From: Squalus acanthias
Lineage: Eukaryota
NCBI GenBank assembly: GCA_030390025.1
Contig: CM059431.1
Span: forward strand, 158,288,001-158,352,000
Reading direction: 5' to 3'
DNA length: 64,000 nucleotides
Position numbers and translations under genes: made by a program. Below are positions 5,461 to 48,594 of the stretch, in pieces; within the stretch, counting starts at the first letter, position 1; every line of letters starts with the position of its first letter. Under the pieces are notes generated by a model. The model was given only the letters and a program-made list of their open reading frames with translations. It searched no databases and had not been told where the DNA came from.

Positions 5461-5480
5461 ACAGTGAGCGATTAGAAATA

Positions 5481-21840: not shown

Positions 21841-23302
21841 TATTTTACTTTAAAATGCACGGATTCTACCTTAATATAGCGCCCAGGAAGAGCCTTTTCT
21901 TCAAAACATCTCTCTCCTCCTTTGAGACGCTCCTTAAAACCTCCCTCTCTGACGAAGCTTTTTGTTCACCTGTCCGAATATCTCCTTATGTGGCTCGGTA
22001 TCACATTTTGTTTGATAACGCTCCTGTGAACAGCCTTAGGACGTTTTACTACGTTAAAGATGCTATAGAAATAAAAGTGTTTTATTGTTCTTCTAGCCCT
22101 GTCCTGGAACCCTTTCTTGTTTATGGCGTCCACAATTATTTTTCTCCTCCTCAAAATGTTATGACCAGGAACATATCTCTGAATCCAGTGGAATCCCAGG
22201 CCCTGTAGTTTCGATACTAAATCACATCATCTCTCATGCTTCTGACTTTCCAAATGTCATTGGAATGATTTGTACATTTACAGGCATAACAGTCAATCCA
22301 CAATCCAACTCTTTGTAATGTTGATCCTATTTTAACTTGAATTTTGTTAACACCTAGTCAACTCATCTCAAACTACACGAAAACAGTCTTCCATTTTCCT
22401 GCTAGTAATTTTTCACTATTTCATAAATATTCTGTTTCAGCTCCAACAGTTTTATAAATTCCGCTCTTTCATCTCAGATGTGGATTATTGCCCCCCTACA
22501 TTCATATCAGTTGATACACTTCCCACTGCACCATTCAACTATTCTGTAAAACCATTGTTGTTGGTAGGTTCAGATCGCCACCGTCCCTTCCGTTCTCCCC
22601 GAACTCACTGTAGTGTACCAACAACCCGAATCCTTCTCTCCTGCTCCAGCCAAGTAGCCCCACATTGACTTGACTCATAATTCCCTTAATAAGCGTCCCA
22701 GTGCAAAACAATCCAGAGATAAACTCTTTGAGACCATATTTTTATTCAAGTGCCTGAGTCTTAATATTCCCTCTATACATGTTTTTCTATCCGTGTTACT
22801 GATTCCGAGCATGGGTAATTTCTGCTCTCCTTTCCTTCCCAGAGATGTTCCCACCTGTTCCATGATGTTCTTCCCTCTGGCACCGGGGAGGCATTTTAAC
22901 ATTCGGCACCTGCTCTGGGCTGCATGGGAGTCGGTCTATTCCCCTGAATATTAAAAGTCCCAACACTATAGATCTCCTTTTCCTGTGCATCACATGCCTC
23001 TCATCCCACTATGGTAGCATCCTGCTCCCTGGTACCACATTGTTGCACAGGAAGACTCTCCTCTGAGTCACTGTCTCTATCCACATTACAGTCCCCAATA
23101 CCAGGTATCTATTGAACAGTTCCAGTACTCAGTGGCTCCCTCCACCTGTGACTGTGATGCCCCTCTAGATGGTCACTCACATCGCTTTTTCTACTCAGCC
23201 CCTGTTCTGTTCCCTCTTCCTGTGTGAGTAACAGGTTCTTGCACGTGATCTGGACCTTTTGTAAGGACAGGAATTATATGTTAAAGCATTTTCTGAACCT
23301 AC

Positions 23303-23366
23303 CTGTGTCTTTCCTTATCCTTTTTGAAGATGCAAGATCTTCTTCCCTGTTTGGACCTTCAGCCAT
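23303..23366 (-). CDS. ATG exon copy 3: MAEGPNREEDLASSKRIRKDT + phase-1 donor
   Basis: 64 nt open, strong Kozak gaccATGG, donor ACAG|gtaggt, acceptor tttacag (exon starts 23398). Confidence 0.7.
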
Positions 23367-23619
23367 GGTCGGGACAGGCGTTCCAATATTCTGATGCTCT
23401 GTAAACATTATAATATTAACAGGAGTGTTAGAAGGAAGTATTAAAATAAGAAGGAGAACGCTGCCTTGTGAAACATGATATCAAGACCCTCCTCCCCCAT
23501 CAGTTCAACAGCTGTTAGCTCTGGGTGTGAACATTTCCCGACTGTTATGATCAACATGTCACATCAGGTGTGACAAAGACAGCTGCCCAATGAAAACCAG
23601 TGAGTTCTGCTGATCTTGC

Positions 23620-26600
23620 GTGTGCATGTTGGCTGGCGCTGCGGATACGAACTGTTCACTTCTATTTACCACTCTTTTCTCTCCTTTACCTTATCTCTCT
23701 ATCGCTCCCTGATTGCTCTCTGCTCTCATTATGCCTCCTTTCATCTTTCCTCTCTCGGATACACTGCTCTTCCAAATCCCTACACCAACCCTTCATTACT
23801 CTTCGACATTCCAAATCTCCTGTTGACTTCCCAGGTTGAAACCCTCTTAGATAAGTATACAGCCTTCCTCTGTGCCTGTCTTTGCATTCTCCGAACGGCC
23901 CACGGTGGCATTCCTTGCTGCCTCCTCACGAGCAGCAACCCCAAATGTATTATCCTACTCTTTCGCCGACCTTCCCGCACGCTGATTGCTAACCTTGCCA
24001 ATCTCCTTCCCGTCCAACTCACCACTCCCAGCGCTAAACCTGTGGACACTGGCAATGCGTTAGCCATCACCGAACCTCTCCCCATTTCTCTCCAGAATGT
24101 CCATTCGCCATCGAACAAGGTTCTTGCCATCCCTGAGATTATCATGGATGATTGCATCGACATCATGGCCCTGATGGAAACGTGGCTGAGGGGTGATGGC
24201 ACCTTACCCTTAAATGAAGCCACCCCACCTGGCTATAACTTCCACCACTTGCCCAGCCAAGACACCCATGGCGGCAGTGTGGCTCTTATCACCAAATCTC
24301 ACCTTGGTCTGTCTCCCTACTCCTCCACTACTTCATCCTCCTTTGAGCATCACACATTATTCCACAACTCTCACCACATTTATAATTCTCGTTCTCTATC
24401 CCCCACCCAAGTAACATTATAATTTTATCACCGAGATAGCTTCACTGATCTCTTCCCTCAGCATCTGCACCGAGCGACTTCTCATCCTCGGTGATTTCAA
24501 CCTTCATATCAATTCATGATGCTCTCTCTCCTCTGAGTTCACTGCCCTGCAAACTCCCTTAATCTCTCCCTCCACATAAACGCCCAAACCCATATTCAGG
24601 CCCACAACCTCGACCTTACCATCTCTCGTGGCCTCGCTACACCCATCGTGTCAATCGCAAATAAAGCCTTCTCCTACCATTTGCTTCTGTCACTCTCCTC
24701 CCACCTCCACTTTCTCTCCAAACCCTACTACAATCTGTTTCCTCCCCTCTAAAAAAAACTCTCTCCCAACTCTCTTACAACTGCACTTATGAAATCCCAA
24801 AAACCAGCCTTTGGCCCTCCATTCACCACAACATTTCTGCAGCTACCGATCTGTTCAACCACACCCTCACCACCACCTTCGATGCCGTAGTCCCTATTAA
24901 ATGAATTACACTGTCTCACCCTGGCTGTTCCAACAGGTATGGGTCTGATCTTAGCTCCCTTAAGTCCAAGAGACGCAGACTTGAACAGATATGGCGGACA
25001 ACTGGTTTAGTCTTTCGTCAACACATCTGGCTGGATCACATAATGCATTATGGGTTCTTGCTCTCGTCTGCCAAAAATGCTCACTATTCCAGAATCATTA
25101 TTGGAATGCAGAGCTAAACCCTGGCTTCTATTCTCCACGGCTAACCAACATCTTATACCCCTATTCCCTGTCTCCTCCACTCTCACCTCAAATAACAAGA
25201 GCGTGGAGCTCATGAACTTCTTTGTTTCTAAGATTGACACCCTACTATCAGCTGCCTCTGCCACTTCTCTTCCTTCCCTTAGCCCACCAGGCCAAACTTC
25301 TCCTAAGTCTAGCCCCTACCCCACCCCTGAACTCGCATTTTTCTCCAGTTTCTCTCCGATCTCCGCTCCTGACTTCGCCGTGCTCATATGAGACATACGT
25401 CGTGCTCCCTCGACCCTATTCCCAACAAACTGCTGAAATCTCAACTTCCTTGTCAGGTTCCTTTCTTAGCTGACATTGTTAACGGTTCTCTCTCCTCCGA
25501 TACTGTGCCCCTCTCCTTCAAACCTGCCATCATCACCACTACCCTCAAAAAAACAACGCTCGACTCCTCCGTCCTTGCAATCTATCGGCCCATTTCCTAC
25601 CTTCCTTCCCGCTCCAAAGTCCTTGAACATGTTGTCACCTCCGAAATCCATGCCCATCTTTCCCGGAACTCCATGTTTGAATCCCACCAATCAGGTTTCC
25701 GCCATTGCCACAGTACCGAAACGGCTCTCATCGAAGTCACAAATGACACCGTTTGCGACTTTGACAAAGACAAAATATCCCTCCACGTCCTTCTCAACTT
25801 CTCAGCAGCCTTTGACACGTTTGACCACTCCACAGTCCTCCAGCGCCTTTCCACCATCGTACAGCTGGGGGGTGGGGGGGGGGGGGGGTGGGTGGGGCTG
25901 CACTCGTCTGGTTCCACTCTTATCTGTCGTAGCCAGAGACACAACTGGAATGACTTCTCTTCCCGCTCCCACATGGTTACGTCTGTTGTTCCACAAAAAT
26001 CTATCCTTGGCCCCCTGCTATTCTTCATCCACATGCTGCCCCTTGACGACATCATCGGAAAACACAGCGTCAGTTCCCACATTATACGCTGACGACACCC
26101 AGCTCTACATCACCGCCACTTCTCTCGACCCCTCCACGGTCTCTAAATTGTCAGACTGCTTGTCCGACATCCATTTCTGAATGATCAGAAATGTTCTCCA
26201 GTCAAATATTGCTAAAATATTGTTTTCATTCCCGCCACCGACTCCATCCCTCTCCTTAACATCTGCCTGAGGCCGAACCACACTCTTGGCAAACATATAG
26301 TCATTTTTGACACTGAACTGAGCTTTCTACCACCTATCTGCGGCGTAACTAAGACCGCCTATTTCCACCTCTGTAACATCGCCCGTCTCCGCCTCTGCCT
26401 CATCTCATCTGCTGCTGGAACCCTCATCCATGCCTGTGTTACCACTAGACTTGAATATTCCAACGCACTCCTGGCTGGCCTCCCACAATCTACCCTACGT
26501 AAACCTGACGTCATCCATATCTCGGATGCACGTGTCCTAACTCACACCAAGTCCCGTTCACCCATCACACCTGTGCTCGCTGACATACATTGGCTCCTGG

Positions 26601-28538
26601 TTAAGCAACGCCTCGATTTCAAAATTCTCACCCTTGTTTTCAATTCCCTCCATGGCCTCGACCCTCCCTACCTCTAATGTCTTCCAGAAAATGCTTTGGG
26701 CCCCGACAACATCCCGGCTATCGTGCTGAAGACTTGTGCTCCAGAACTAGCCGCGCCTCTAGCCAAGCTGTTCCAATACAGCTACAACACTGGCATCTAT
26801 CCGACTGGTAAACTGCCCAGGTATGTCCTGTCCTCAAAAAGACTAACAAATCCAACTCAGCCAGTTACCGCCCGATTAGTCTGCTCTCAATCATCAGCCA
26901 TGTGATTGAATGTGTCATCGATAGTGCTCTCAAGCGGCAATAACTCACAAATAACCTGCTCACTGTTGCCCAGTTTGGGTCCACTCAGCTCCCGAACTCA
27001 TCATAGCCTTGTTTCAAACATGGACGAATGAGCTGAATTCCAGAGGTGAGGTGAGAGTAACTGCCCTTGACATAAAGGCAGAATTTGACTGGGTGTGCCT
27101 TCAAGGAGCCCTAGTAAAATTGAAGTCATATGGGAATCGGGGGGGAAACGCTCCATTGCTGGAGACATATCCAGCACAAAGGAAGATGGTTCTGGTGGTT
27201 TAAGCTCAATCATCACAGCCCCAGGACATCGCTGCAGGAGTTCCTCAGGGCAGTGTCCTAGACCCAACCATCTTCAGCTGCTTCATCAATGACCATCCCT
27301 CCAACAAAAGGTGAGAAATGGGGATGTTCGCTGATGACTGCACAGTGTTCAGCGCCATTCACAATTCCTAATATAATTTAGCTGTCCATGCCCGCATGCA
27401 ACAAGACCTGGACGACGTTCAGGCTTGTGCTGATAATTGGCAGGTAACATTCGTGCCACAGAAGTGCCCGGCAATGACTATCTCCAACAAGTGAGAGTCT
27501 AACCATCTCCCCTTGACATTCAACATCGAATCTCCAACCATCAATACCCTGGGGGTCACCGTTGACCTGAAACTTAACTAGATCAGCCACATAAAAACTA
27601 TGGCAACAAGCGCAGGTCAGAGGCTAGGTATTCTGCGGCGAGTGTATCACCTCCTGATTCCCCAACACCTTTCCATCATCTACAAATCACAAGTAAGGGG
27701 CGTGATGGAATACTCTCCATTTGCCTGGATGAGTGCAGCTCCAGCAACACTCAAGAACCTCGACAAAATCCAGGACAAAGCAGCCCGCTTGATTGGCACC
27801 ACGTTAAACATCCACTCCCTCCGCCACCGGCGTACCGTGGCTGCAGTGTGTACCATCGAGAAGATGCACTACAGCAACTCGCCAAGGATACTTTGGCAGC
27901 ACCTCCCAAACCCGCGACCTCTTCCACTTAGAAGGACAAGGACAGCAGGCGCATGGGAACACCACCACCTCCAGGTTCCCCTTCAAGTCACACACCATCC
28001 TGACTTAGAAGTATATCGCTGATCCTTCATCGTCGCTGGATCAAAATCCTGGAACTCTGTAAATAAAAGCACTATGGGAGTATCTTCACCACACAGACGG
28101 CAACTTTTCAAGAAGGCAGGTCACCAACACCTTCTCAAGGGCAATTAGGGATAGGTAATAAATGCTGGCCTTTCCAGCGACACCCACATCCCGTAAACGA
28201 ATAAGAAGTCCCACCCCCACGCGAGATAAATGCTCTCCTATAATTCTGCCCTCTTGAGCATCCCTGATAATAATCGCTCAAGCATTGGTGGCCGTGCCAT
28301 CTGTTGCCTAGGCACTAATTTCTGGAAATCCCTCCCTATACCTCACCGACTCTCGAATTCACTTTCCTTCTTTAAGTCGCTCCTTAAAACTTACCTCTTT
28401 GACCAAGCTTTTAGTTATCTACCCTAATTTCTCCTTACCTGGCTCGGTATCAAGTTTTTGTCTTATAATACACCTGTGAAGCGCATTTGGGACGTTTTAC
28501 TCCTATCGACGCGCTATATAAATACAATTTGTTGTTGA
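23620..28538 (+). mobile_element. Degenerate L2 LINE, paralogue of 1960-5230, split by nested LINE at 26688-28208
   Basis: SCSLDPIP, YRPISYLP, HSTETALIEVTND, FSAAFDT, YADDTQLY. Tail tatataaatacaatttgttgttg. Confidence 0.9.
26688..28208 (+). mobile_element. 5'-truncated non-LTR retrotransposon of a different CR1/Jockey-group family, nested in L2
   Basis: GPDNIPAIVLKTCAPELAAPLAKLFQYSYNTGIYP, TALDIKAEFD, gttcctcagggcagtgtc (VPQGSV), YKSQVRGVMEYS. L2 sequence resumes on both sides. Confidence 0.88.
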
Positions 28539-29207
28539 TCTCCACAACCGAGTTCCAGATGTGCTCCCGTCGGCCGGGACTCCGCACTGAGAGTGCCCGT
28601 TTGTAAGCTTTACTCACGGTGCACGCCAAAACCAGCCTTATTCCTGAGGTAGAGAATATTCTGTAGCGAAATTTGGAGCTTGTGATTACTGATGAATTAA
28701 ATGATCCTTCACTAGGTTTTACACTCTGGCGGTATAATATTATATTTATTCACCGATTTTTGTTTAATATTTTGCATTTGCTGTATTTTGATATTATTTC
28801 TTGTAGTTTATGACTATGATATCGATCCACACACAAAATATTTCTAGATGTGATCCCTCTGGTCTCTATGGGCTGTGACATTGTCCGTGTGTTACTGGAG
28901 ATGAGTCCTGTTAGGTGCTTCTATTTGAATATATTGACCATATCTCTCATGGTGTCAGCACCTGAGGAATCAGCACTGTAGCAGGTGAGGTCACTTACCA
29001 CTGTTCCACTAATATTAACACTTATGAATAATATTATCAATCATGTAAACTTTAAACAGTGAGATGATGCACAGCATTGATTTCTGGAATATATTTAGGG
29101 GTCTGACAATCTCAGAATTGGCCATTAATATACAAGTGGTAGATTTAACTGCTGTTTTACAATCACAATTCTCCACTTGTGCGCGTGTCTCGCTGTGTGT
29201 GTTCACA

Positions 29208-29278
29208 CACGTGCGTCCAATCAAACTCTCAGTCAGTGTCCTTTCCTTTCCCCACTGGGGAAAAATAGTTTCAGTTCC
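29208..29278. promoter_or_regulatory. Candidate cis-element cluster: E-box, CCAAT, GGAAAGGAAAG and ISRE/EICE-like GGAACTGAAACT
   Basis: CACGTG 29208-29213, CCAAT 29217-29221, ctttcctttcc 29241-29251, agtttcagttcc 29267-29278. The first three are conserved in the paralogue at 6335-6377. Confidence 0.35.
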
Positions 29279-29357
29279 GGATAAGTAATTTCTGCAAAAT
29301 ATAGTTGAAGTTATATTTCGGAATTAATTTAGAACTAAGTTTGAGACCTTGTAAAAC

Positions 29358-29379
29358 TCAGTTATCTGCTGTTTGATAC
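29358..29379 (-). CDS. Terminal coding exon of TM gene: (Q)YQTADN*
   Basis: Acceptor ctttgttatactag, phase 2 matching previous exon, TGA at 29358-29360, AATAAA (minus) at 28745-28750. Confidence 0.65.
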
Positions 29380-29700
29380 CTAGTATAACAAAGAAATAAG
29401 TCACATAAGTCACAACAACAACTTGCATTTCCACAGCTTGAGTGGAGCACAAACGCCGGAATGGTCTGGTTGGGCGGAATCGCCTGTTCTTTGAGGTATC
29501 TCCTATGTAATCGTATGTAATTCACATTTCGAACTCCATACTTTTCTCGCATCGTGCTCTACTTCATCCGGGCATCTGCCTACTTCATTTTTTGTTAATT
29601 CTGCCTCCCATGTTTTACTAACTCCTTACGGTTCAAATGTATTTCGTTATACCCTCTATTCACCCCGCCGACAAAGATACTTCCTCTTGACGTTGCTTAC

Positions 29701-29726
29701 TGAACCGGCATCCTGCTGTGATTTAC
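29701..29726 (-). CDS. 26-nt tail exon: VNHSRMPV(Q), phase 0 to 2
   Basis: aattaatttcag| ... |gtaagc; phase fits neighbours. Confidence 0.65.
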
Positions 29727-30121
29727 CTGAAATTAATTTAGCAGATAATAAAAGAGTTCTCTTCCTTTTATTGGCAGGGATGCGGCGTTGGCAGTTTGCG
29801 GGGGCGTCCGACTCGAAACCCATCGATTGATGAATGTTACATTCATTTATTTCCCTTAACTCCAAGATCAAGCGGGTGCTCAAAATGAACAAGACATACC
29901 ATTGAACAGCGAAAGGAAACGGTGAACGGGTTAACAAGTGAAAAGGGAACATTGTGAACTCAATTGCAATCACACTAATTTTTGTGGATATCACTACAAT
30001 GAGTAAGAAGGAAATAATTTTGGGAAAACAGTTTGCGATATGAATAGAAAATAATCAGGCAGTCATCAATAATTTAGCCAATACATGACCGTAGCTGGTA
30101 TAATTAAAGAACTGAACGTAC

Positions 30122-30183
30122 ATCACTATAGAACTCAGAGGGATTTGCGGGAGTCGGGTCGGAGAAAGGCGTGAGAGTGATCT
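30122..30183 (-). CDS. 62-nt tail exon: (E)ITLTPFSDPTPANPSEFYSD, phase 1 to 0
   Basis: tctttattaacag| ... |gtacgt; open and phase-compatible. Confidence 0.65.
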
Positions 30184-30530
30184 CTGTTAATAAAGACAAA
30201 ACCTCATCATCAACAACTTGCATTTGTACGGCGTCTTTAACGTGGAAAATAAATATTCCAAGGCGCCTAAAGGAAGTTTTACAGATATAAGAACGCACAC
30301 ATCCGGGACAACGAAAATGATAAAAAGGGTTCAAAAGATGTAGATGAAGTGCAGTCAAAAAAGTAGGTTTTTGAGCATAAGTTTAATGATAACCAGGGGA
30401 CGTAGAGGTGGATAATTTAGGGAGAGAATAACAAAGTGAGTAGTGTATTTCTTTTTCTCCACCAAAAATGCAACTGGTTATTTCACTATTTGTATTTCCT
30501 GCATCTTTAATGTCGGCGGTGCAATCTTAC

Positions 30531-30659
30531 CGCGATTTTTCCGGTTTTGCCAACAACACGTCACCAGAACTCCTACGGCTCCCACCAGTATTGCAACTAA
30601 GACTGCAACCGTGACGATTATCTTGCCTTTTTCGTCCATTATTGCAGTATCGTCAATCT
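30531..30659 (-). CDS. Transmembrane exon: (E)IDDTAIMDEKGK-IIVTVAVLVAILVGAVGVLVTCCW-QNRKNR, phase 1 to 1
   Basis: 129 nt, acceptor tctttaatttacag, donor CGCG|gtaaga, ~23-residue hydrophobic stretch flanked by basic residues. Confidence 0.85.
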
Positions 30660-31518
30660 CTGTAAATTAAAGAATATGTTTGAGATTTGTTTTTCAAGTA
30701 TTCATTGACAGTCCAAATAGTCTCAAACAATTAGAAAAGCTGCTGTTATTTCATAACACTCAGAGAAAAAAAAACTCTAAGCGAAAGATGAACCATCCGT
30801 GAATATGTAAGAAAGTAAATGATAGTGTGAACTTGAGAATAAAAGCATATAATGTTGCGAAGAATAGCAGCTCTTCTTTAGAGCCTTTCAAACAGTAAGA
30901 CGGCCATTGGCGCCTCACAGAGCAGGAATTTAGAGTTAAACTGCCTCTTTTCCGTAGAGTTAAGAGAAACGACCTAGTATTTGCAACATGTGGAGGTTGT
31001 TTAAAGTAAGTAGGAAGTAAAGAGTGGAAGCCCAAGGCAACGGATTCCAGACAATGGTGCTGACGACTTTGTTGGAGTCCGGAGCAGAGGAACCAATAAT
31101 CTGGGGACCACAGCAAAGGGAGAGGATGGACCAGAAATAAAAGAGGGTTTCTGAAGATGACTGTAAAATTAAGACGCTCGAGACCGTAAAGGTAATTGTA
31201 GATGAGTAGGAGTCTTTCACAAATTGTTTGGAATAGCAAGTGAATGTCGGTCACCGACGAATGGGATTATGGAAAAGTTGAAATGACGGTGAACTGATGA
31301 ATTGAAGCAGTCGAGCTCTGGAGATTCTATCTGGCAGTGCCCAAAAGCCGTTTAAGGAATCGAGTCTAAACCTCACAAAAGCGTATCTAAATCACTAGCA
31401 AATATTCATATGTTCTCATATATCCAGAAAATTAAAATATGATGGTTGCGGACGGTGATCTGAGAATCCATTCGAAATTTATTGCTTGGAATCACCAGAT
31501 GCTGCTAATCAATTAGAA

Positions 31519-31543
31519 CTAGTCGTGACTGTCGCTTGTTAGC
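31519..31543 (-). CDS. Candidate alternative terminal exon D: (R)LTSDSHD* (DYF* in other units)
   Basis: Acceptor ttattagctctttag, phase 2 fits exon C, AATAAA at 31478-31483. Present in all units. Confidence 0.3.
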
Positions 31544-31824
31544 CTAAAGAGCTAATAAATAATGCACACATAGTTAAAGAAAGTAACAGTAAATGCAAGC
31601 TCATTCCTTCTTTCTTGGGAAAACTAAACTGCGATACGGACCGGAGAAATTGAAATACTGTGAATCTAAATGTACTCAAAATAAATTTGATAGATATCAA
31701 TACAACAATTACAAGAACACACCATTGGGATAAAGTTATTGATATCAAATTGAAAAAATAACTAAATCTCAAATACCACGTCTGAAACATGGCAATAGCT
31801 GGTAGGAATCATAATTGAATGTAC

Positions 31825-31861
31825 CTGATTCTAAAATGCCTATCGATGTAAGTAGAAAGAC
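31825..31861 (-). CDS. Candidate 37-nt linker exon C: (G)LSTYIDRHFRI(R)
   Basis: Acceptor tttagtctctctcag, donor CAG|gtacat. Copies at 38758-38794 and 58422-58458 (donor altered) and 47409-47445 (intact). Confidence 0.4.
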
Positions 31862-32809
31862 CTGAGAGAGACTAAATAAAGAACGTCCCGGAATTAGCGG
31901 TCAGCGCGAAGCAAAGGCATTTGCTGCGGCCACAAAGTAAGCTTGACACAAAGATCTCGCAATCAGGTTTTCCGAAGTGTAATTCAAATCAACGGAGCAT
32001 CATTGGGAATCCCGAGTGCAAGCTGCTGTGAAGTCAACAGGCTGTCTAAGCATCCAAACAAAACGCAGAATTCTCACAGACAGCGAACAAGGAAGTGAAT
32101 AAGCTGTTGAACTTCTAACATTTCAAAATATCATTCAGCGAACGAAACAAATATTGGGGCTCTAACATGCGGAAAATGCAAAGCAGAAATAAGGAAGAAA
32201 AATCTTTTAAAATAATTACATTTTCAGAATAATGTTAATTTTTATTTAAATGAATAAAGTTGTCTCTGCACAACATAAAAATTCGATTTTCTGGCCGTCA
32301 CATTGGTTTAGAATTCAATACGCTGTTGCAATCCAGTTACACCCTTCCCTTTCAGTCAAACTTTTAGTGGGGAATTCAAGAGCGCAATTACGGTGAAAGA
32401 GCCGAAGATTACATCAGTTTTCCTGATTTGAGAGTTTTCCCTGATGACCGGCTCTGGGTGGGCACAGGGCAGCCTCTGCAATTTTATTGGAGTCAAAGGA
32501 AGGGAACATAGGACCGAGCGAACAACGGGCAGCAGATGCAATGCCGGCCGTTTTTCGGCGAGGACAGAACACAGACCGTATCTCATCCATCGCCTGTTAT
32601 ATGTTGCGCGCGAATAAACTTGAATTGAGCTGAATATCGGGCGTGTGTGCAACTGTCGACAAATGTCATCCGGCCATTGTGTGTTCCCGACAATTAGAAT
32701 TTCATCCATCTGGACATCAACTTAAAATAAGTTTCTCGACATAAATAATGAACTCTCTTACTATGAAAGTAAACGAGATCTTTTGCAATTAGATTTTGAC
32801 ATCGCCTAC

Positions 32810-33008
32810 CTTCTAGATCATGTTTTGTCCCTGTATCTCTGTTCTGTATCTCTGACAATGTCGCTTTCAGTTTGGGTTCTGTATTCTGCAGTTGAAGAAA
32901 TATGTTCCACATTGTTCTTTCTCCCCGAGCTCCCTTTTCCAGCACGATATCGAAAATGCGTTGGGATGCATTGTTTCTGCGCGTACTTTCAGCAAGTGTA
33001 CTGATTTC
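32810..33008 (-). CDS. CARD-like exon B, unit 1: EISTLAESTRRNNASQRIFDIVLEKGARGERTMWNIFLQLQNTEPKLKATLSEIQNR(DTGTKHDLE)
   Basis: Acceptor atgtttttag, phase 0. Normal donor after 32837 reads AT; an in-frame GAAG|gtaggc donor lies 27 nt further. IFDIVLEKG matches the CARD helix-5 LxDxVxxKG pattern. Confidence 0.75.
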
Positions 33009-34473
33009 CTAAAAACATATTGCAATCATATTGAACAAAGTATTTTACAAAATCAACTAAGAAACGTCGGTTTTGTGTCTCCCTCTCTTTATGGGAGGAA
33101 TGAATAGAAAAACTCACAATCAGGTGATCAAAATCTATGTCATCGCGGTAAGTTATAAGGAGCGTCTCTAAAGAGCAGAGAATGGCAGACGGCCGGAGAG
33201 GATTACAGAGTTAATTCCAGAGTTTAGGACCGAGAGAGCACAACGCACCGCTAACAATGGTGGCGTGAAGAGAATCGGGGTTGCGCAATGGTTCAGAATT
33301 TGATGAGCACAGAGATCACGGAGGATTGTAGGGCTGGAGGATGCTGCACAGATAGAGAGGACTAGCGTTGAGTCACCGAGGGAAGTTGAATTTTCTCAAC
33401 TGATATGAAAAAATGTTAAGTGCTAAATAAAAGGGGAAAAGTCAGATTTCAGGAATATGGTTCGTGCAAAATGAAGCATTATTTGTTGTTAGTAACAGCA
33501 ATATTCTGGAAAGCTCACAAAGTGCTTTTAGAAACTCAAACTGCACAGATTGCAAAACAATGCGGGTGAAATTGGAATCGGCCAGTCGCATGACAGGTGC
33601 TGATAGCGAATGGTCGACTCGTGTTACACGCGTCCGTATTTCTTTACCATTGATTGCAATTAGACTTCCGTTCATTTCAAGTATCATTCATCGAAACAGT
33701 AGCACAAGCTTATCAGTCAATCCTTCATCTTCTATATGAAACATTTGCTTTGAATACCTGAATAGTCCTGTCTTATGAGTAACTATATTATTTGAAGTGT
33801 TTATGAAATGTGATCATTGTCCCGAAAACTGTCTCATGCCAATCACCAAATTCTTAAACTGTCAACGTTTTACCTTTTGCTCGTTAACCTCTATGTTTCT
33901 TTGATTTGATTTATATAATCAACCCCCTACATTCAATTTTTAAATCTACTTTTAATTTCCTTTTCTATGCACATCCAAATAATTCTTGTATGTGCTCCAT
34001 TGCTTTTATTATCGTGTAATTCCTTTATATAGTATCGCAATCATTTCCTAGTTGGTAACTTCGTATTGCTTCCCGACGGAATTATCTGATCCATTGCCTC
34101 CCAATATATCTGGACTAGAGTGTTGTTGATTTGTGCAAAATGGTTATCCTGTACATATACATTGCGTTGATTTACTGTTCTTCTGAATTCTAAGGATATC
34201 ATTGCTTCATAGATATCCGTTATCCGTTTGCAGAAATTGATACAATACTCATTCCTTCCCTGTTGTGCTGGAAACGTACCCATCTACCTCACGTCCTGGA
34301 TACGTGGCAGATAGCACACTCCCTCTTCCACCCGTACATCACTTCTATACTTTAGATATTTAAAGTCATCCATATCTCTGATACCCTCGCTAAAATGTCT
34401 CCATTTTTCAATATATCGCTTCCTCAATTCGTGACCCACCACTTGTGAATGAAAATGAACTCCTCATAGTTAA

Positions 34474-35294
34474 TGGCTAGGTTTTTCGATCGCAGGAATC
34501 CCGGGTGCGCAGGTCTGCAATCTAGAAGAATCTACGCCCTTACCTTCGGGTTCCCGGGACGCACACGATTCAGATCCTGGGCCTCTCCAATCTCGATTTG
34601 CGCAGGGCCCTATTATCCCAGAGGCACAGGCAGATTACAGGGAGCATGGGATCATGTGGGCCATGGGGAGCCAATCAAAGTAGGGAAACTGCATTCATAC
34701 ACGTGACAGGAAGACCTTTCAAATATATGAATGGAGATCACCCCAAAAACATAGTGGCCCAGAAATTCCTTTCGCAGGCCGCCCGCGGGCGGAGGACTGC
34801 GATCTGGAAAAATCTGTGCCCGGACCGCAGGGGTCCCGGGAGGCGCAGAGTTCCGTTGCTTGGTCTCTCCAAACTTCCGGTGCGCAGGTCCCACGTATCC
34901 CAGAGGCGCAGGCGGTTCGCAGCGTCCCTGGGATCACGTAGGGAGCCAATCAGAGAAGGGAATCTCCCTTCATACATTTGACAGGAAGACCTGCCAAATA
35001 TATGAATGGAATTCACCCCCAAAACATAGTAAAAGCAAGCCTTAGCCCTGCTTTTACCAGGCATACGATTTATAATGGTTTTCTACAGGCGGGGGTTCTC
35101 CAGAAAGCGGAAATATCCGTCCGCAGAGGACCTTCTCCAGGCTCGGCGTCCAATCTGTCAAGAGCATTCTTGACAGATCGGAAATTACGGATTTCAGCGC
35201 ATGCGGTTGGCATGCCTGAAACCGTCATTTCCGAAGTCCCTACGGTTGTGTACACAGCGCGTACACACCCGTAAGGATCCGAATATCCGGTCCA
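34474..35294. mobile_element. Non-autonomous TIR element (MITE-like) with ~275-bp internal subrepeat
   Basis: Ends ttaa-TGGC...GGCCCA-ttaa. Copies at 43122-43943, 54137-54968 and 61074-61895. Confidence 0.65.
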
Positions 35295-36048
35295 TTAACG
35301 CCAATCTCCCAGCCGTGCGCTTACATTAACCATGTCTTCATATCATAACTTCCAAGAGCATCTTCAGACAATCGCAACCTTCAACTAATCAGTTTTATTC
35401 ACCATGCTTTATTATTATATGTGTTACATAATTTCAGGAAATATTAGAAAAGAGATCAGATTGACATCATGCATGAGACTCGGAATTTTATTTTAAATAG
35501 GACATGATGGCTGTCATGACAAGAGATGCCGGTAATGTTATGTCCCTGAGCATTGGGCAGAAGAATAAACGTGAAGGCTTAAAGTTGCGTAACCCATGGA
35601 CTGGATGAATTTTGCGAGTGCTTGGTGAGACGTAGAATAATGCAGATATTTTGTGGTTGTTAACTATAAATAATAATTGTGGCAGGGAAGTTGGTAGATA
35701 GGCAGGTAGAATCAGCCATGCAGTGAAGTTGGAAGGAGAAAATTAACGGAAGCAACGACTTGGATATGTTCAGGAGAAAGTTCTAGAAATTGGTGCCACC
35801 GGCAGTGACTCACACGAATCGTCTCGTTTAATTAAAATGCACGTCACCTTTGCTAAAGAACGGACAGAATATATCGGCCGTGAGCGACAGCTTATTTTAA
35901 ATATGTCAGTTAACTTATTTTCCTGAGATTAGCTATATGTGGCTATTAGATGTTCTAACTAGCTCCAGGATATCCATTGGGTATTTGCTGAGTAGGCGTG
36001 ATGCTTGTGCTGCTAGTGGTATCTTCTTCAAATATTCATTACAATATT

Positions 36049-36802
36049 TGGCCCGTAATTTTCGTTAGGTGGCTGCCTGCGTGCGCATGCCTCCTATCGG
36101 GAAGAAATCTACGCCATTACCTGAGGGCTCCCGAGGAGGAGCCATTTCCGATCCTGTGCCTGTCCACAGTAGAAATGCGCAGTGCCCACCTGATCCCAGG
36201 GACGCTTGCGAAGCTCGTGAGCCCCTGAGATAGGTGGACAGGCGAGAGAATAGAAGGGAATCTCCCTTCATACCTTTGACAGATAGACCTGTCAAAGTTA
36301 TGAATGGAGATCACCCCAAAAGCAAATCAAAACAATAAATACCTTTTTAAAAAGCATCGCGTTTTTAAAATGAGTAACATTAATATTAATTTAAATTTTT
36401 TAAACAAAAATTTAATGTTTTAAAAAAAATAATTAAAGATTTTTACTGAGCTAAAATTAAACTTAACTTATTTAGAAGTACTTTAAAATTATAAGTGAGT
36501 GAAAAAATCTATTTTTTTTACTTTTTTATACTCCTGCGCTGGGAAAAGCCGGCTTTACGCGTGCTTTTACCAGGAGTACGATTTTTAAGTGTTTTCAAGA
36601 GCGGATGTCCTGCAGCGGAAATCTCCACCCGCAGATTCCCTTCTCTGGGGCAAGCGTCCGATTTGCCAAAATGATTCTTGACAGATCGGAAATGCCGGTT
36701 TTCAGCGCATGCGCTTCGCATGCCTGAATCTGGCATTACCGATGTCCCGACGGTTATGTACACCGAGCGTACTCACACGTTGGCATCGGAAAATACGAGC
36801 CA
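36049..36802. mobile_element. Second member of same TIR element family (tggcccgtaattttc...gaaaatacgagcca)
   Basis: Imperfect TIRs, internal similarity to 34474-35294, AT-rich core. Copies at 44697-45454, 55723-56481 and ~62662-63418. Confidence 0.65.
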
Positions 36803-37547
36803 TTGTGTCTTGGCGTGTTCCTTGCAATCCTGAAATTTGGATTAATTGCTCCTTGCATAGGATGCCATTTATGTCCGATTACAGAAACAACATTCACCCA
36901 AATCCCTGCAGAAATACGGCCAAGGTAAATAGCTTAACTGCAAGACGGTTTCCAGTGAATTATCAGTTGATTAGAAAGTCTCTTTCTGCAGATGGTTTTT
37001 GCCTGTCACTTATGCGGCACAAATGTTACTTCCTAATTATCCAACAAAACTGGAATGTTGATCAGATCTTGTTGCATACGGGCATGTACTGTTTAGTTAC
37101 CTGAGCAATTGGGAATGGAATTGAACACTGCAATCATCAGCGTACAGCCCAAATTATGACCGTATGACAGAAAAAAAATTATTGATGAAGCAGCTGACGG
37201 TATTTGGGTCGAGGATTCTTCCACAATGAACTCATGGTTATAATATGAGATGCTGTTCTCTTGTTATTTAACACATTAAAAACGACAAGTTCTGTTTCCT
37301 TTGAGACGATATTAGCTGTAATCTAAGAGCACGTGAAAGGGTGGGCCGTGAGAAGGTTGTTATCATTCACCCCATGGCAATCAAGTCCTCGCACCACCAC
37401 ACATACCCCGCGAACATAAAGTCGCCAGAGAATACAACCGTTAAACCAGCAAAGCCGTGCTGTTCCAGACCGACTTGAACAATCTCCCACCAACCCGTCT
37501 CAAATTTAGGAGGCCATTTAGACAATTCCAACATATATGTAGCATAC

Positions 37548-37717
37548 CTTATGAATTGTTTCAGTAAACACGTTTGCATCTAAGAGCGATTGACTAACAG
37601 CTTCCACGAATTCTTCAATGGACGATTCTAGTCTCTGACGGTAGCAGCCGATAATTCTTCCAAGCTGGATATCCGTGTAGCCCGCCAACATTAGTAACAA
37701 TATAGTATCTGAATTTT
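37548..37717 (-). CDS. CARD-like exon A, unit 1: (E)NSDTILLLMLAGYTDIQLGRIIGCYRQRLESSIEEFVEAVSQSLLDANVFTETIHK
   Basis: 170 nt, acceptor tttacacttttacag, donor AAG|gtatgc, phase 1 to 0, open. YRxRLExxIEExVExVS pattern as in shark NLR-like N-terminal domains (recalled). Confidence 0.8.
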
Positions 37718-39769
37718 CTGTAAAAGTGTAAATGAGAACAGGTTACAATACTATGTTTGCTTTGAAGCAATGCATAATTTGAACTAACTTTTAGAGTCGC
37801 AGCTTTTCTTTAGAGCCTTTCAAACAGTGAGACGGCCAATGGCGCCTCACAGAGCAGGAATTTAGAGTTAAAGCTGCCTCCTTTTCGTAGAGTTAAGAGA
37901 AACGACCTAGTACTTGCAACATGTGGAGGTTGTTTAAAGTAAGTAGGAAGTAAAGTGTGGAAGCCCAAGGGAACGGATTCCAATCAGTGGTGCTGACGAC
38001 TTTGTTGGAGTCCGAAGCAGAGGAACCAATAATCTGGGGACCACAGCAAAGGGAGAGGATGGACCAGAAATAAAAGAGGGTTTCTGAAGAAGACTGTAAA
38101 ATTAAGACGCTCGAGACCGTAAAGGGAATTGTAGATGAGCAGGAGTCTTTCACAAATTGTCTGGGATAGCAAGTGAATGTCGGTCACCGACGAATGGGAT
38201 TATGGATAATTGGAGATGAGGGTGAATTGATGAATTGAAGCAGTCGAGCTCTGGAGATTCTATCTAGCAGTGCCCTTAAGTCGTTTAAGGAATCGAGTCT
38301 AAACGTCACAAAAGCGTATCTAAAACACGAGCAAATATTCATATGTTATCATATATCCAGAAAATAATAATATGATGGTTGCGGACGGTGATCTGAGAAT
38401 CCATCCGAAATTTATTGCTTGGAATCACCAGATGCTGCTGAGCAATTAGAAATAGTCGTGACTGTCGCTTGTTAGCCTAAAGAGCTAATAAATAATGCAC
38501 AGATAGTTAAAGAAAGTAACAGTAAATGCAAGCTCATTCCTTCTTTCTTGGGAAAACTAAACTGCGATACGGACCGGAGAAATTGAAATACTGTGAATGT
38601 AAATGTACTCAAAATAAATTTGATAGATATCAATACAACAATTACAAGAACACAACATTGGGAAAAAGTTATTGATATCAAACTGAAATAATAACTAATT
38701 CTCAAATACCACATCTGAAACATGGCAATAGCTGTTAGGAATCATAATTGAATGTAACTGATTCTAAAATGCCTATCGATGGAAGTAGAAAGGCCTGAGA
38801 GATACTAAATAAAGAACGGCCCGGAATCAGCGGTCAGCGCGAAGCAAAGGCATTTGCTGCGGCCACAAAGTTAGCTTGACACAAACATCTCGCAGTCATG
38901 TTTTCCGAAGTGTAATTCAAATCAACGGAGCATCATTGGGAATCCCGAGTGCAAGCTGCTGTGAAGTCAACAGGCTGTCTAAGCATCCAACCAAAACGCA
39001 GAATTCTCACAGACAGCGAACAAGGAAGTGAATAAGCTGTTAAATTTCTCACAATTAAAAAAATGATTGAGCGAACGAAACAAATATTGGGGCTCTAACA
39101 TGGGGAAAATGCAAAGCAGAAATAAGGAGGAAAAGTCTTTTAAAATAATTACATTTTCAGAATAATGTTAATTTTTATTTAAATGAATAAAGTTGTCTCT
39201 GCACAAAATAAAAAAAATAGATTTTCTGGCCATCACATTTGTTTAGAATTCAATACGCTGCTGCAATCCAGTTACACCCTTCCCTTTCAGTCAAACTTTT
39301 AGTGGGGAATTCAAGAGCGCAATTACTGTGAAAGAGCCGAAGATTACATCAGTTTCCCTGATTTGAGAGATTTCCATGATTACCGGCTCTTGGTGGGCAC
39401 AGCGTAGCCTCTGCAATTTTATTGGAGTTAAAGGAAGGGAACATAGGACCGAGCGAACAACGGGCAGCAGATGCAATACCGGCCGTTTTTCGGCGAGGAC
39501 AAAACACAGGCCGTATCGCATCCATCGCCTATTATATGTTGCGCGCGAATAAACTTGAATTGAGCTAAATACGGGCGTGTTTGTAACTGTCGGCAAATGT
39601 TACCGGCCATTGTGTGTCCCCGACAATTAGAATTTCATCCTCATGGACATTAACTTAAAATAAGTTCCTCGACATAAATCATTAACTCTCTTACTCTGAA
39701 AGTAAACGAGATCTTTTGCAAATAGATTTTGACATCGCCTACATTCTAGATCATGTTTTGTCCCTGTAC

Positions 39770-39941
39770 CTGTCTTCTGTATATCTGATAATGTGGCATT
39801 CAGTTTGGGTTTTGTATTCTGCAGTTGAAGAAATATGTTCCACATTGTTCTTTCTCCCCGAGCTCCCTTTTCCAGCGCGGTATCGAAAATGCGTTGGGAA
39901 GCATCGTTTCTGCGCTGACTTTCAGCAAGTGTACTGATTTC
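39770..39941 (-). CDS. CARD-like exon B, unit 2 (EISTLAESQRRNDASQRIFDTALEKG...LSDIQKT)
   Basis: 172 nt, intact AG and ACAG|gtacag, open. Confidence 0.78.
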
Positions 39942-40198: not shown

Positions 40199-41910
40199 AT
40201 AGAACATATAGAACAGTGCAGCACATTACAGGCCCTTCGGCCCGCGATGTTGTGCCGAGCATTGTCCGAGACCAAGATCAAGCTATCACACTCCCTATCA
40301 CTCTGGTGTGCTCCATGTGCTTATCCAATAACCGCTTGAAAGTTCCTAAAGTGTCAGACTCCACTATCACAGCAGGCAGTCCATTCCACACCCCAACCAC
40401 TCTCTGAGTAAAGAATCTACCTCGGACTTCCCTTCTATATCTCCCCCCATACACCTTATAGTTATGCCCCCTTGTAACAGCTGCCTCTACCCGAGGAAAT
40501 AGTCTCTGAACATCCACTCTATCTATCCCCCTCATCATCTTATAAACCTCTATTAAGTCGCCTCTCATCCTCCTCCGCTCTAAAGAGAAAAGCCCCAACT
40601 CCCTCAATCTTTCCTCATAAGACCTCCCCCCCAAACCAGGCAGCATCCTGGTAAATCTCCTTTGCACTCTTTCCAATGCTTCTACGTCCTTCCTATAGTG
40701 AGGTGACCAGAACTGCACACAATATTCCAAATGTGGTCTCACCAAGGTCCTGTACAGTTGCAGCATAACCTCACGGTTCTTAAACTCAAACCCTCTGTTA
40801 ATAAACGCCAACACACCATAGGCCTTCTTTACTGCTCTATCAACTTGAGTGGCAACCTTCAGAGATCTGTGGATATGAACCCCCATATCCCTCTGCTCCT
40901 CCACGTTCCTCAGAACCCTGCCGTTGACCCTGTAATCCTTATTCAAATTTGCCCTCCCAAAATGAATCACCTCGCACTTATCAGGGTTAAATTCCATCTG
41001 CCATTTTTCGGCCCAGCTCTGCATCCTATCAATGTCTCTTTGCAGCCTACAACTGCCCTCCACCTCATCCACTACTCCACCAATCTTGGTGTCATCAGCA
41101 AATTTACTGATCCACCCTTCAGTCCCCTCCTCCAAGTCATTGATAAAAATCACAAACAGCAGAGGACCCAGCACCGACCCCTGTGACACACCGCTGGTAA
41201 CTGGTCTCCAGTCCGAAAATGTTCCATCCACCACCACCCTCTGCCTTCTATGAGATAGCCAGTTACTTATCCAATCGGCCAAATTTCCCTCTATCCCACA
41301 ACTCCTTACTTTCTTCATGAGACGACCATGGGGAACCTTATCAAACGCCTTACTAAAATCCATGTATACGACATCAACTGCTCTACCTTCATCTACACAC
41401 TTAGTTATCTCCTCAAAGAATTTAATCAAATTTGTTAGGCAAGACTTACCCTTCACGAATCCGTGTTGACTATCCCTGATTAAGTTGCCCCTTTCCAAAT
41501 GGTCATAAATCCTATCCCTCAGGACTTTTCCATTATCTTACCAACCACCGAAGTAAGACTAACCGGCCTATAATTACCAGGGTCATTTCTATTTCCTTTC
41601 TTGAAGAGAGGAACAACATTCGCCACTCTCCAGTCCTCTGGCACCATCCCCGTGGACAGTGAGGACCCAAAGATCAAAGCCAGAGGCTCTGCAATCTCCT
41701 CCCTTGCCTCCCAAAGAATCCTAGGATATATCCCATCTGGCCCAGGGGACTTATCGACACTCAGGTTCTTCAAAATTGCTAAAACATCTTCCCTCAGAAC
41801 AACTACCACCTCCAGCCTATCCACCTTTATCACACTCTCATCCTCAAGAACATGGCCCCTCTCCACGGTGAACACTGACGAAAAGTATTCATTCATCACC
41901 TCTCCTATCT
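40199..41910 (-). mobile_element. Young 5'-truncated CR1 LINE inserted only in unit 2
   Basis: 406-aa RT ORF 40278-41498 plus upstream frame 41519-41910. Inserted in atggtggc|gtgaagag, which is empty in the other units. Confidence 0.96.
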
Positions 41911-44900
41911 CGTGAAGAGAATCGGAGTTGTGCAATGGTTCAGAATTTGATGAGCACAGAGATCACGGAGGATTGTAGGGCTGGAGGATGTTGCAGAGAT
42001 AGAGAGGACTAGCGTTGAGTCACCGAGGGAAGCTGAATTTTCTCAACTGATATGAAAAAATGTTAAGTGCCAAATAAAAGGGGAAAAGTCAGATTTCAGG
42101 AATATGCTTCGTGCAAAATGAAGCATTATTTGTTCTTAGTAACAGCAATGTTCTGGAAAGCGCACAACGTGCTTTTAGAAACTCAAACTGCTCAGATTGT
42201 AAAACAATGCGGGTGAATTTGGAATCGGCCAGTCACATGACAGGTGCTGATACCGAATGGTCGGCTCGTGTTGCACGCGTCCGTATTTCTTTATCATTGA
42301 TTGCAATTAGACTTCCGTTCATTTCAACTATCATTCATCGAATCAGCAGCACAGGCTTATCAGTCAATCCTTCATCTTCTATATGAACCATTTGCTTTGA
42401 ATACCTGAACAGTCCTGTCTTATGAGTAACTATTTTATTTGAAGTGTTTACGAAATGTCATCATTGTCCCGAATTCTGTCACCTGCCAATCAACAAATTC
42501 TTAAACTGTCAACGTTTTACCTTCTGCTCGTTAATCTCTATGTTTCTTTGATTTGATTTATATAATCAACCCCTTACATTCAATTTTTAAATCTACTTTT
42601 CATTTCCTTTTCTATGCACATCCAAATAATTCTTGTATGTGCTCCACCCGTTTTATTATCGTGTAATTCCTATATATCGTATCGCAATCATTTCCTACTT
42701 GGTACCTTCGTATTGCTTCCCGACGGAATTAACTGATCCATTCCGTCCCAATATATCTGGGCTAGTGTGTTCTTGATTTGTTGAAATTGGTTATCCTGTA
42801 CATATATATTGCTTTGATTTACTGTTCTTCTGAATTCTAATGATATCATTGCTTCTTAGATATCAGTTATCCGTTTGCAGAAATTGATACAATACTCATT
42901 CCTTCCCTGTTGTTCTGGAAACGTACCCATCTATCTCACGTCCTGGATACGTGGCAGATAGCACACTCCCTCTTCCACCCGTACATCACTTCTAAACTTT
43001 AGATATTTAAAGTAATCCATATCTTTGATACCCTCGCTAAAATGTCTCCATTTTTTCAATATATCGCTTCATCAATCCGTGACCCACCACTTGTGCATGA
43101 TAATGAACTCCTCATAGTTAATGCCCAGTTTTTGCGATCGCAGGAATCCTGGGTGCGGAGGTCTGCAATCTGGAAAAATCTACGCCCTTACCTTCGGGAT
43201 CCCGGGCCGCACAGTATTCCGATCCTGGGCCTCTCCAATCTCCACTTGCGCATGGCCCTATTATCCCAGAGGATCAGGCAGATTACAGGGTGCCTGGGAT
43301 CATGTGGGCCATGGGGAGCCAATCAAAGTAGGAAAACTGCATTCATACACTTGACAGGAAAACCTTTCAAATATATGAATGGAGATCACCCCAAAAACAT
43401 ATTGGCGAAGAAATTCCTTTCGCAGGCCGCCCGCGGGCGGAGGACTGCGATCTGGAAAAATCTGTGCCTGGACCGGAGGGGTCCCGGGAGGCGCAGAGTT
43501 CCGTTGCTTGGTCTCTCCAAACTTCCGATGCGCAGGGCCCACGTATCGTAGAGGCGCTTGCGGTTCGCAGCGTCCCTGGGATCACGTAGGGAGCCAATCA
43601 GAGAAGTGAATCTCCCTTCATACACTTGACAGGAAGACCTGTCCAATATATGAATGGAATTCACCCCGAAAACATAGTAAAAGCTAGCCTTAGCCCTGCT
43701 TTTAGCAGGCATACAATTTCTAATGGTTTTCTGCAGGCGGGGGTTCTCCAGAAAGCGGAACTATCCGTCCGCAGAAGACCTTCTCCAGGCTTGGCGTCCA
43801 ATCTGTCAAGAGCATTCTTGACAGATCGGAAATTACGGATTTGAGCGCATGCGCTTGGCATGCCTGAAACCGGCATTTCCGATGTCCCTGCGGTTGTGTA
43901 CACAGCGCGTACACACCCGTAAGCATCGGAAAATACCGGCCCATTAACGCCAAGCTCCCAGACGTGCGCTTACATTAACCATGTCTTCATATCATAACTT
44001 CCTAGAGCATCATCAGACAATCGCAACCTTCAACTAATCAGCTTTATTCAGCATCCTTTATTAATATGTGTTATATAACTTCAGGAAATATTGGAAAATA
44101 GATCAGATAGACATCAAGGATGCGATTCGGAATTTTATTTTAAATAGGACATGATGGCTGTCGTGACAGTAGATGCCGGTAATGTTGATGTCCCTGAGCA
44201 TTGGGCAGAAGAATGAATGTGAAGGCTTAAAGTTGCGTAACCCATGGACTGGATGAATTTTGCGAGTGCTTGGTGAGACGTAGAAAAATGCAGATTTTTT
44301 GAGGTGGTTAATTATAAGTAATAACTGTGGCAGGGAAGTTGGTAGATAGGCAGGTAGAATCCGCCATGCAGTGAAGTTGGAAGGAGAAAAGAAATGGAAG
44401 CAACGACTTGAATATGTTCAGTAGAAAGTTCTAGAAATTGGTGCCACGGGCAGTGACTCACACGAATCGTCTCGTTTAATTAAAATGCTCGTTTGCTTTG
44501 CTAAAGAACGGACAGAATTTCTCGGCCGTGAGCGACAGCTTATTTTAAATATGTCAGTTAATTTCTTTTCCTGAGATTAGATATATGTGGCTATTAGATG
44601 TTCTATCTAGCTCCAGGATATCCATTGGGTCTTTGCTGAGGACGCGTGATGGTTGTGCTGCTAGTGGTATCTTATTCAAATATTCATTACAATATTTGGC
44701 CCGTAATTTCCTTTAGGAGGCTGCCTGCGTGCGGTTGACTCCTATCGGGAATAAATCTACGCCCTTACCTGAGTGCTCCCGAGGAATAGCCATTTCCGAT
44801 CCTGGGCCTGTCCACAGTAGAAATGCGCAGGGCCCACCTGATCCCAGGGACACCTGCGACGCTCGTGAGCCCCTGAGATATGTGGACAGGCGAGAGAATA

Positions 44901-46198: not shown

Positions 46199-46368
46199 CT
46201 TATGAATTGTTTCAGTAAACACGTTTGCATCTTAGAGCGATTGACTAACAGCTTCCACGAATTCTTCAATTGACGATTCTCGTCTCTGACGGTAGCAGCC
46301 GATAATTCTTCCAAGATGGATATCGTTGTAGATCGACAACATTAGTAACATTTTAGTCTCTGAATGTT
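46199..46368 (-). pseudogene. CARD-like exon A, unit 2, with nonsense codon
   Basis: Splice sites intact, but TTA(Leu)->TAA at 46232-46234. Confidence 0.75.
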
Positions 46369-48395: not shown

Positions 48396-48594
48396 CTTCT
48401 AGATCATATTTTCTCCCTGTATCTCTGTTCTGTATCTCTGACAATGTCGCTTTCAGTTTGGGTTTTGTATTCTGCAGTTGAAGAAATATGTTCCACATTG
48501 TTCTTTCTCCCCGAGCCCCCTTTTCCAGCACGGTATCGAAAATGCTTTGGGAAGCATCGTTTCTGCGCTGACTTTCAGCAAGTGCACTGATTTC
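48396..48594 (-). CDS. CARD-like exon B, unit 3 (EISALAESQRRNDASQSIFDTVLEKG...EIQNR(DTGRKYDLE))
   Basis: Open. Normal donor after 48423 reads AT; in-frame GAAG|gtaggc donor 27 nt downstream, as in unit 1. Confidence 0.72.

Follow-up and report, generated by a model that had tools for sequence, protein, structure and literature searches.

Cytosolic NLRs signal through polymers of CARD or PYD domains, and the site where such polymers are seeded is a central question for NLR signalling. The best-known example of seeding is MAVS on mitochondria, a protein with an N-terminal CARD and a C-terminal membrane anchor. CARDs also act on their own: the CARD-only proteins ICEBERG/CARD18, COP/CARD16 and INCA/CARD17 are inhibitors. 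CARD19/BinCARD-2 likewise has an N-terminal CARD and a C-terminal mitochondrial membrane anchor (PMC8997538). For cartilaginous fish, the whale-shark genome paper describes an expanded NLR family near the NLRPs, in passages that mention neither CARD arrays nor transmembrane (TM) forms (PMC8455134). A literature search turned up no description, for this group, of tandemly arrayed CARD exons or of CARDs with a membrane anchor; annotation of the CARD family and of its NLR context already exists. Here we analyze a window of 64,000 nt (C7:158,288,001-158,352,000 of a 3.7-Gb cartilaginous-fish assembly), on the minus strand of which a young tandem array of CARD cassettes, two exons each, reaches its 3' end and is followed by a TM exon. 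The cassette originates in the effector domain of the NLR family that has expanded in sharks and rays. As the best explanation of the whole, we tentatively propose that the unit of CARD cassettes, TM exon and short tail is a gene type for a CARD protein anchored in the membrane by a C-terminal helix.

The analysis covered the window and 50 kb on each side (164 kb in total); coordinates with '+' continue the window numbering past 64000, in the upstream direction of the array. The last cassette of the array and the elements that follow it are:

37548-37717, minus strand: exon A of the last cassette (A1), first half of the CARD; 170 nt, phase 1-0, intact
32810-33008, minus strand: exon B of the last cassette (B1), second half of the CARD; 199 nt, phase 0-1, last base G
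30866/30867: breakpoint; tandem-unit homology ends at 30866 and TM-segment homology begins at 30867
30531-30659, minus strand: TM exon; 129 nt, phase 1-1
30104-30183, minus strand: candidate for the likeliest last coding exon; 26 codons plus stop, acceptor ttattaacag/

Exons A, B and TM are genuine, with good splice sites and compatible phases. Exon A1 (acceptor ttttacag/, donor AAG/gtatgc, the slash marking the junction) is open over 56 aa and exon B1 (acceptor tttttag/, donor AAG/gtaggc) over 66 aa, which confirms both exons and their phases as given in the initial annotation; in alignments with database proteins the A/B join is continuous sequence. The TM exon (acceptor tttacag/, donor CGCG/gtaaga), also correctly predicted, is in frame after A and B and encodes a 24-residue hydrophobic run ending in CCW with a basic stretch after it (best 19-aa Kyte-Doolittle mean 3.06). 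The alternative exon-B end proposed at 32837 has no GT next to it in B1 (ACAGAG/ATACAG), whereas a GT is present there in the copies ending at 39770 and 59435 and, outside the window, at +74054. A computed join of A1, B1, the TM exon and the next candidate exon remains open for 191 residues to a stop, or 183 aa when counted from the first Met, inside exon A. The putative product of the window copy would be a protein of ~183 aa with one CARD, a TM helix and ~32 residues after it. Judged by its sequence, the layout suggests that a CARD protein with a C-terminal anchor is encoded by it or was until recently.

The nature of the domain is apparent from its relatives. A phmmer search with exon B against 1.84 billion representatives returned 17 matches at E ≤1e-3. 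The fourth (P0005), a low-complexity repeat protein, was dropped as spurious; the remaining matches are shark and ray proteins (E 1e-23 to 6e-4). These include NLRs named 'NLRP3-like' by NCBI, in which the domain is N-terminal and often present in two or three copies, and short proteins of two to four domain copies. Pfam does not find a CARD in the window exons taken singly, an outcome to be expected of half domains. Among the homologues, the Pfam CARD (PF00619) scores 30.3 bits in P0007, over the 23.9 cut-off, and falls just under it in P0004 (23.4 bits) and P0006 (22.9 bits); the UniRef name of P0002 is 'CARD domain-containing protein'. Fold tests were made on the homologues P0013 and P0006, not on the joined peptide of the window. 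The AlphaFold2 (AF2) model of P0013 has a predicted local distance difference test score (pLDDT) of ~97 over residues 10-120. Its best match in the VIA structure search is the NLRC4 CARD (Z 12.0, root-mean-square deviation (rmsd) 2.8, 89 of 90 aligned); rows 1-35 are all CARDs bar one designed protein, and death and death-effector domains appear only at Z ≤7.4. The model of P0006 displays two confident helical domains, then a helix over residues 263-313. Its second domain, 57% identical to exon A and 48% to exon B of the window, matches the SP100 CARD at Z 12.2 (rmsd 1.8, 96 aligned), with CARDs on top and the first non-CARD death-fold row at Z 8.3. Foldseek also lists CARDs first, yet at E ≥0.18, and among PDB sequences phmmer found no significant match for P0002 or P0007 (caspase-1 CARD, E 0.47). 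Word-index protein searches with exon B and with the TM open frame (against longer proteins) gave no match at the thresholds used, and with P0006 found only itself, so that collection holds no close annotated relative. Since CARDs top the structure searches of two homologues, the domain is a CARD by fold, with one extra N-terminal helix. The predicted structures thus support the assignment of the A+B pair to a CARD-type death-fold domain of the shark and ray NLR family. The earlier suggestion that the pair is CARD-like and resembles the N-termini of an expanded chondrichthyan NLR-like family agrees with phmmer, Pfam and the homologue models; the death-fold match foreseen for A+B is borne out by the models, and not by Pfam on the single exons.

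The junction between the array and the TM exon is sharply defined. Tandem-unit homology stops ~80 bp before the expected next exon-A acceptor (~30784), and the switch at 30866/30867 to the TM segment, which was duplicated separately, places the TM exon where the next exon A should be. An old rearrangement swapped that exon A for a segment with the TM exon and a short tail exon; the unit of CARD cassettes, TM and short tail was later copied to several places on the chromosome. The TM exon has 12 copies in the genome. It is found 2.0-2.2 kb after the last B of an array at four loci—C7:158.32 (the window), 158.83, 155.30 and 155.03 Mb—and at a fifth, 159.18 Mb, which lacks the last B, the TM exon comes after an A exon. 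The paralogous B-to-TM loci are 93-98% identical in coding and non-coding sequence alike, which implies a single origin of the junction, followed by copying through young segmental duplications. Where it is present, one TM exon serves 1 to 9 cassettes; no TM exon is listed directly after the more divergent arrays. The same order of domains is present in another shark: P0006 (XP_078390056.1, LOC144671995, an uncharacterized automatic RefSeq gene model from the basking shark Cetorhinus maximus) consists of CARD, CARD, hydrophobic helix and short tail, and its CARD-end-to-TM junction is at the same position as in the window. Its TM is less hydrophobic (best 19-aa mean 2.32 vs 3.06 in the window), the TM segments are 28-32% identical, and the tails are unlike. 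The annotated succession of CARD exons and TM exon is therefore upheld by the in-frame order, the recurrence in paralogues and the basking-shark model, with the restriction that only the last cassette is readable.

The remainder of the array and the segment that carries the TM exon are as follows:

30938-64000 and on to ~+82.6 kb, minus strand: tandem array of A+B units; unit ~6.93 kb
39743-39941, minus strand: exon B, copy 2; T as last base; 172-nt form to 39770 through an alternative GT donor
46199-46368, minus strand: exon A, copy 2; in-frame stop
48396-48594, minus strand: exon B, copy 3; open, last base G
57213-57382, minus strand: exon A, copy 3; frame open, acceptor AG changed to AC
59408-59606, minus strand: exon B, copy 4; T as last base; shorter form to 59435 through an alternative GT donor
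25589-30867, minus strand: TM-carrying segment with its downstream flank; inverted copy at +107801 to +113066, 91.6% identical

The array has at least 7 units and reaches beyond the window: 7 B and 6 A exons lie between 32.8 kb and +82.6 kb. Its units are 93-97% identical to one another, two of them being enlarged to 8.65 and 11.0 kb, and above it are a long terminal repeat (LTR) retroelement, a partial unit and the inverted copy of the TM segment. The frame is open in each of the 7 B exons, and the A exons at 37717, +64333 and +72001 are intact. The B exons at 39941 and 59606, which end in T, would produce TAA or TAG at the next junction in the long form, a stop bypassed by the GT donor 27 nt upstream. 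Among 30 close genome copies of exon B, 13 have a GT donor 27 nt ahead of the usual one, and 6 end in T at the usual donor, which would give a stop at the next junction. Traced backwards from the TM exon, the frame stays open across B1, A1 and the short-form B2 until the stop of A2 closes it; the sole frame open into the TM exon starts from the last cassette (~183 aa). A protein with more than one CARD, as initially annotated, has no read-through in the window: one A exon contains an in-frame stop and one lacks its acceptor. Could the cassettes be alternative variable units, with one or two CARDs spliced to constant TM-tail exons? All units are phase 1-1 with near-identical splice sites, exon B has two forms with different donors, 1-9 cassettes share a single TM exon, and P0006 uses only two CARDs. 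However, no promoter or start exon was found per cassette, and the differences between cassettes are few and look near-neutral; we consider this explanation very improbable.

The initial annotation had recognized an ATG exon of MAEGPNR type, three copies of which are present in the window:

23303-23398, minus strand: 96-nt ATG exon; own acceptor and donor, open, phase 1-1
1641-1736, minus strand: second 96-nt copy
17495-17590, minus strand: third, diverged 96-nt copy

All three are downstream of the TM exon, have an acceptor of their own and are open in phase 1-1, so the exon could also serve as an internal linker. The segment that carries it recurs downstream with a period of ~15.5 kb, at -8.9, -24.3 and -39.9 kb. 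The annotated co-duplication (23161-29377 vs 1499-6506) is genuine, at 81-82% identity, and further copies of the block exist elsewhere. The TM exon and the exon after it lie outside the block, which consequently does not define a gene unit, contrary to the proposal that it represents the repeating gene unit of a family. At the 3' end, three phase-perfect tail exons to a stop had been described. A permissive scan finds 22 in-frame chains, so phase agreement carries no weight, and the three-exon tail is no better than chance. One tail exon candidate, 29900-29993, has no AG acceptor in three of six paralogues. Exon 30104-30183 would end the protein ~32 residues past the TM helix, with S-V-L at the C-terminus and a YxxV motif. 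Its acceptor and frame are preserved in 6/6 paralogues, a comparison that is uninformative for tail exons given 93-98% identity throughout these loci. The absence of a NACHT exon from the window was correctly noted: tblastn with six NACHT-bearing proteins over the 164 kb found none, five of the six matching the CARD exons only and P0008 matching nothing. The nearest scored NACHT exons on the contig are >500 kb away (95 of 481 candidates scored). A NACHT NTPase exon in the same gene, as defines an NLR, is thus lacking in the window and its 50-kb flanks.

Genome-wide, we found at least 150 exon-B and 118 exon-A matches, nearly all on the same contig (153.7-159.6 Mb) in arrays with periods of ~4.5 or 7 kb. 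Older arrays of the cassette are present at C7 153.7-155.6 Mb and 158.03-158.09 Mb (plus strand), with 65-75% identity, a period of ~4.5 kb and up to ~14 units that are almost stop-free; no TM exon and no scored NACHT exon are listed beside them. Of the matches at ≤80% identity, 72 of 75 for exon A and 107 of 118 for exon B are stop-free, whereas a substitution-only neutral simulation predicts 24-48%. The mostly open state of the older copies indicates that the cassette family as a whole is functional.

The main rival to an anchored CARD gene is that the young loci are unexpressed: the array would be a decaying by-product of segmental duplication of NLR 5' exons, and the TM exon an orphan fragment that a rearrangement set beside it, with no mRNA joining it to the CARDs. 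Several observations weigh in this direction, as the start exon, unbroken array frame and signs of constraint of an intact gene are missing. Half of the A exons (3/6) are disabled, by the stop in 46368, the AG to AC acceptor change in 57382 and a frameshift in +80396. The ATG exon was not found upstream of the array out to +114 kb, ~30 kb past the last recognizable array sequence, nor before the first A of the two sister arrays at 155.03 and 158.83 Mb, where an ~80% copy of window 23.7-29.4 kb without the ATG exon is present instead. The TM exon diverges like introns (~5%), with a ratio of nonsynonymous to synonymous differences (pN/pS) of 1.83 over 6 copies, and exon B has a pN/pS of 0.84 over 30 young copies (divergence 4.1% vs 5.75% in flanking introns); these counts come from non-independent paralogues and have little power. 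The recurrence of the B-to-TM junction within the genome, having arisen once and then been copied, amounts to one event. Sister loci also contain lesions: a near-invariant Trp is replaced by Arg in the last B at 155.3 Mb, and B is deleted at 159.18 Mb. Finally, stops are commoner among exon-A matches above 80% identity (6/43) than among older ones (3/75). On the other hand, splice sites and open frames are retained throughout the last cassette, the TM exon and the exon after it, none of the 32 exon-B matches above 80% identity (mutually non-independent copies) has a stop, and the domain order of P0006 is the same in another shark. We regard the absence of a gene as somewhat unlikely, while the window copy itself is probably decaying.

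Transcript data do not show the predicted joints. In three small runs under the same species label, presumed to be RNA, contigs on 23000-37870 are mainly transposon, and no A-B or B-TM joint is listed. A single 239-nt contig (90% alike) aligns over 32856-33007, its match breaking off at the exon-B acceptor, which is compatible with a spliced paralogue and equally with a diverged intron.

A gene model from a third shark displays the opposite order. P0003 (XP_078087540.1, Mustelus asterias, an automatic model) begins with a hydrophobic leader and a short Cys/N-glycosylation-type stretch, followed by a TM ending in CCF and basic residues. Behind the TM come a Y-x-x-L motif, three near-identical CARDs, NACHT and LRR. 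The model may represent a membrane-tethered NLR or a merger of gene models. A TM segment of the CC[FW]-plus-basic kind therefore adjoins these CARDs, on either side, in models of two other sharks, which makes three sharks with the window. That P0003 has its TM before the CARDs weighs against a C-terminal anchor in the window, and so does the faintness of the resemblance between the window TM and those of P0006 and P0003 (E 0.04-0.1 in small local databases). The basic stretch and Tyr motif after the TM would also suit the tail of a type I receptor with its N-terminus outside; as far as sequence can tell, the flanking charges are as consistent with a tail anchor as with a type I orientation. 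The window TM exon could, as in P0003, belong to a type I membrane module that reads into downstream exons and not into the array. The 96-nt exon at 23303-23398, with its own acceptor and an open phase 1-1 frame, is a possible downstream partner, and the charges and Tyr motif would suit a cytoplasmic tail. Against this arrangement, no A, B or NACHT exon follows on the same strand for ~80 kb, and an exon resembling the P0003 N-terminus was not found in the locus or the genome: in tblastn, the N-terminus of P0003 and the ends of P0006 matched the locus only weakly, at the TM, and a genome search with the first 131 residues of P0003 gave no match. We see only a very slim chance for it.

The TM segment and its inverted duplicate stand at either end of the array. 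Two sister arrays have their second TM copy on the same strand, ~50 kb upstream, and the window locus may thus carry an inversion or an assembly error. The window is repeat-rich, and its other features are:

108-1421: open reading frame of endonuclease/reverse-transcriptase type from a long interspersed nuclear element (LINE)
40278-41962, minus strand: LINE-type open reading frame
50410-53259, plus strand: LINE-type open reading frame
9549-13839: GC-rich 23-nt satellite, ~186 copies
18513-18923: smaller patches of the satellite motif, 5 kb further on
+84001 to +94000, plus strand: LTR retroelement
30960-31250, 37893-38183, 46544-46834 and 57557-57847, minus strand: 96-aa open frame

The LINE-type frames at 50410-53259 and 40278-41962, which encode endonuclease plus reverse transcriptase or reverse transcriptase only, sit inside the third and second array units, the ones enlarged to 11.0 and 8.65 kb. 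The satellite includes 27-nt and longer-period variants, and the range 13721-14276 is also listed for it. The LTR retroelement, inserted just above the array top, has long open frames for protease, reverse transcriptase, RNase H and integrase. Every array unit retains the 96-aa open frame immediately ahead of its exon A; the frame has no Pfam match.

If the anchored CARD protein is real, its CARD, of the same type as those of the neighbouring NLRs and fixed to a membrane, could seed or cap CARD-CARD polymers and so act as a scaffold or decoy; this role is suggested by analogy with MAVS, CARD19 and the CARD-only inhibitors. Membrane-anchored CARDs built from NLR genes would provide a simple system for the acquisition of scaffolds or decoys by an expanding receptor family, and would be a case of phase 1-1 modules undergoing exon shuffling in an immune locus of a vertebrate. 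It is improbable, in our estimate, that sharks have built a new class of innate-immune adaptors from NLR parts, in which splicing joins one or a few near-identical cassettes to a constant TM-tail and so yields variable anchored CARDs that nucleate or cap the polymers of hundreds of NLRs. The mirror-image form of the Mustelus model (TM, CARDs, NACHT, LRR) would be a membrane-tethered NLR. Should the loci be pseudogenes, they still document how fast NLR-derived arrays arise and decay in sharks.

The closest described relatives are the shark and ray NLRs (XP_078087540.1 from Mustelus asterias, XP_051865185.1 from Pristis pectinata and XP_072892439.1 from Hemitrygon akajei), which share the domain family and the two-exon split with the window and in several models have two or three tandem copies. 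They carry NACHT and LRR, whereas the window has a TM exon next and no NACHT or LRR within 50 kb. MAVS and CARD19/BinCARD-2 share with the putative product the order of one CARD, then a TM helix at the C-terminal end, followed by basic residues. Structural matches include the CARD of BinCARD (Z 10.5 and 10.6), but it ranks no higher than many other CARDs and so implies no specific sequence kinship; the putative window protein, with ~32 residues after its TM, resembles MAVS and CARD19 in architecture and not as a homologous family. The CARD-only inhibitors, of which ICEBERG appears among the Foldseek matches, have, like the window, a CARD without an enzymatic or NACHT part that comes from duplicated CARD exons of a signalling gene. 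They are soluble single CARDs, while the window combines a tandem exon array with a membrane anchor. Successive CARDs, two or more, are shared by the window array with RIG-I, MDA5 and NOD2, and the CARDs of RIG-I and MDA5 are structural matches as well (Z 9.6-11.2). In those proteins, however, a fixed pair of diverged CARDs precedes a helicase or NACHT, whereas here the cassettes are near-identical and form arrays of up to at least 9.

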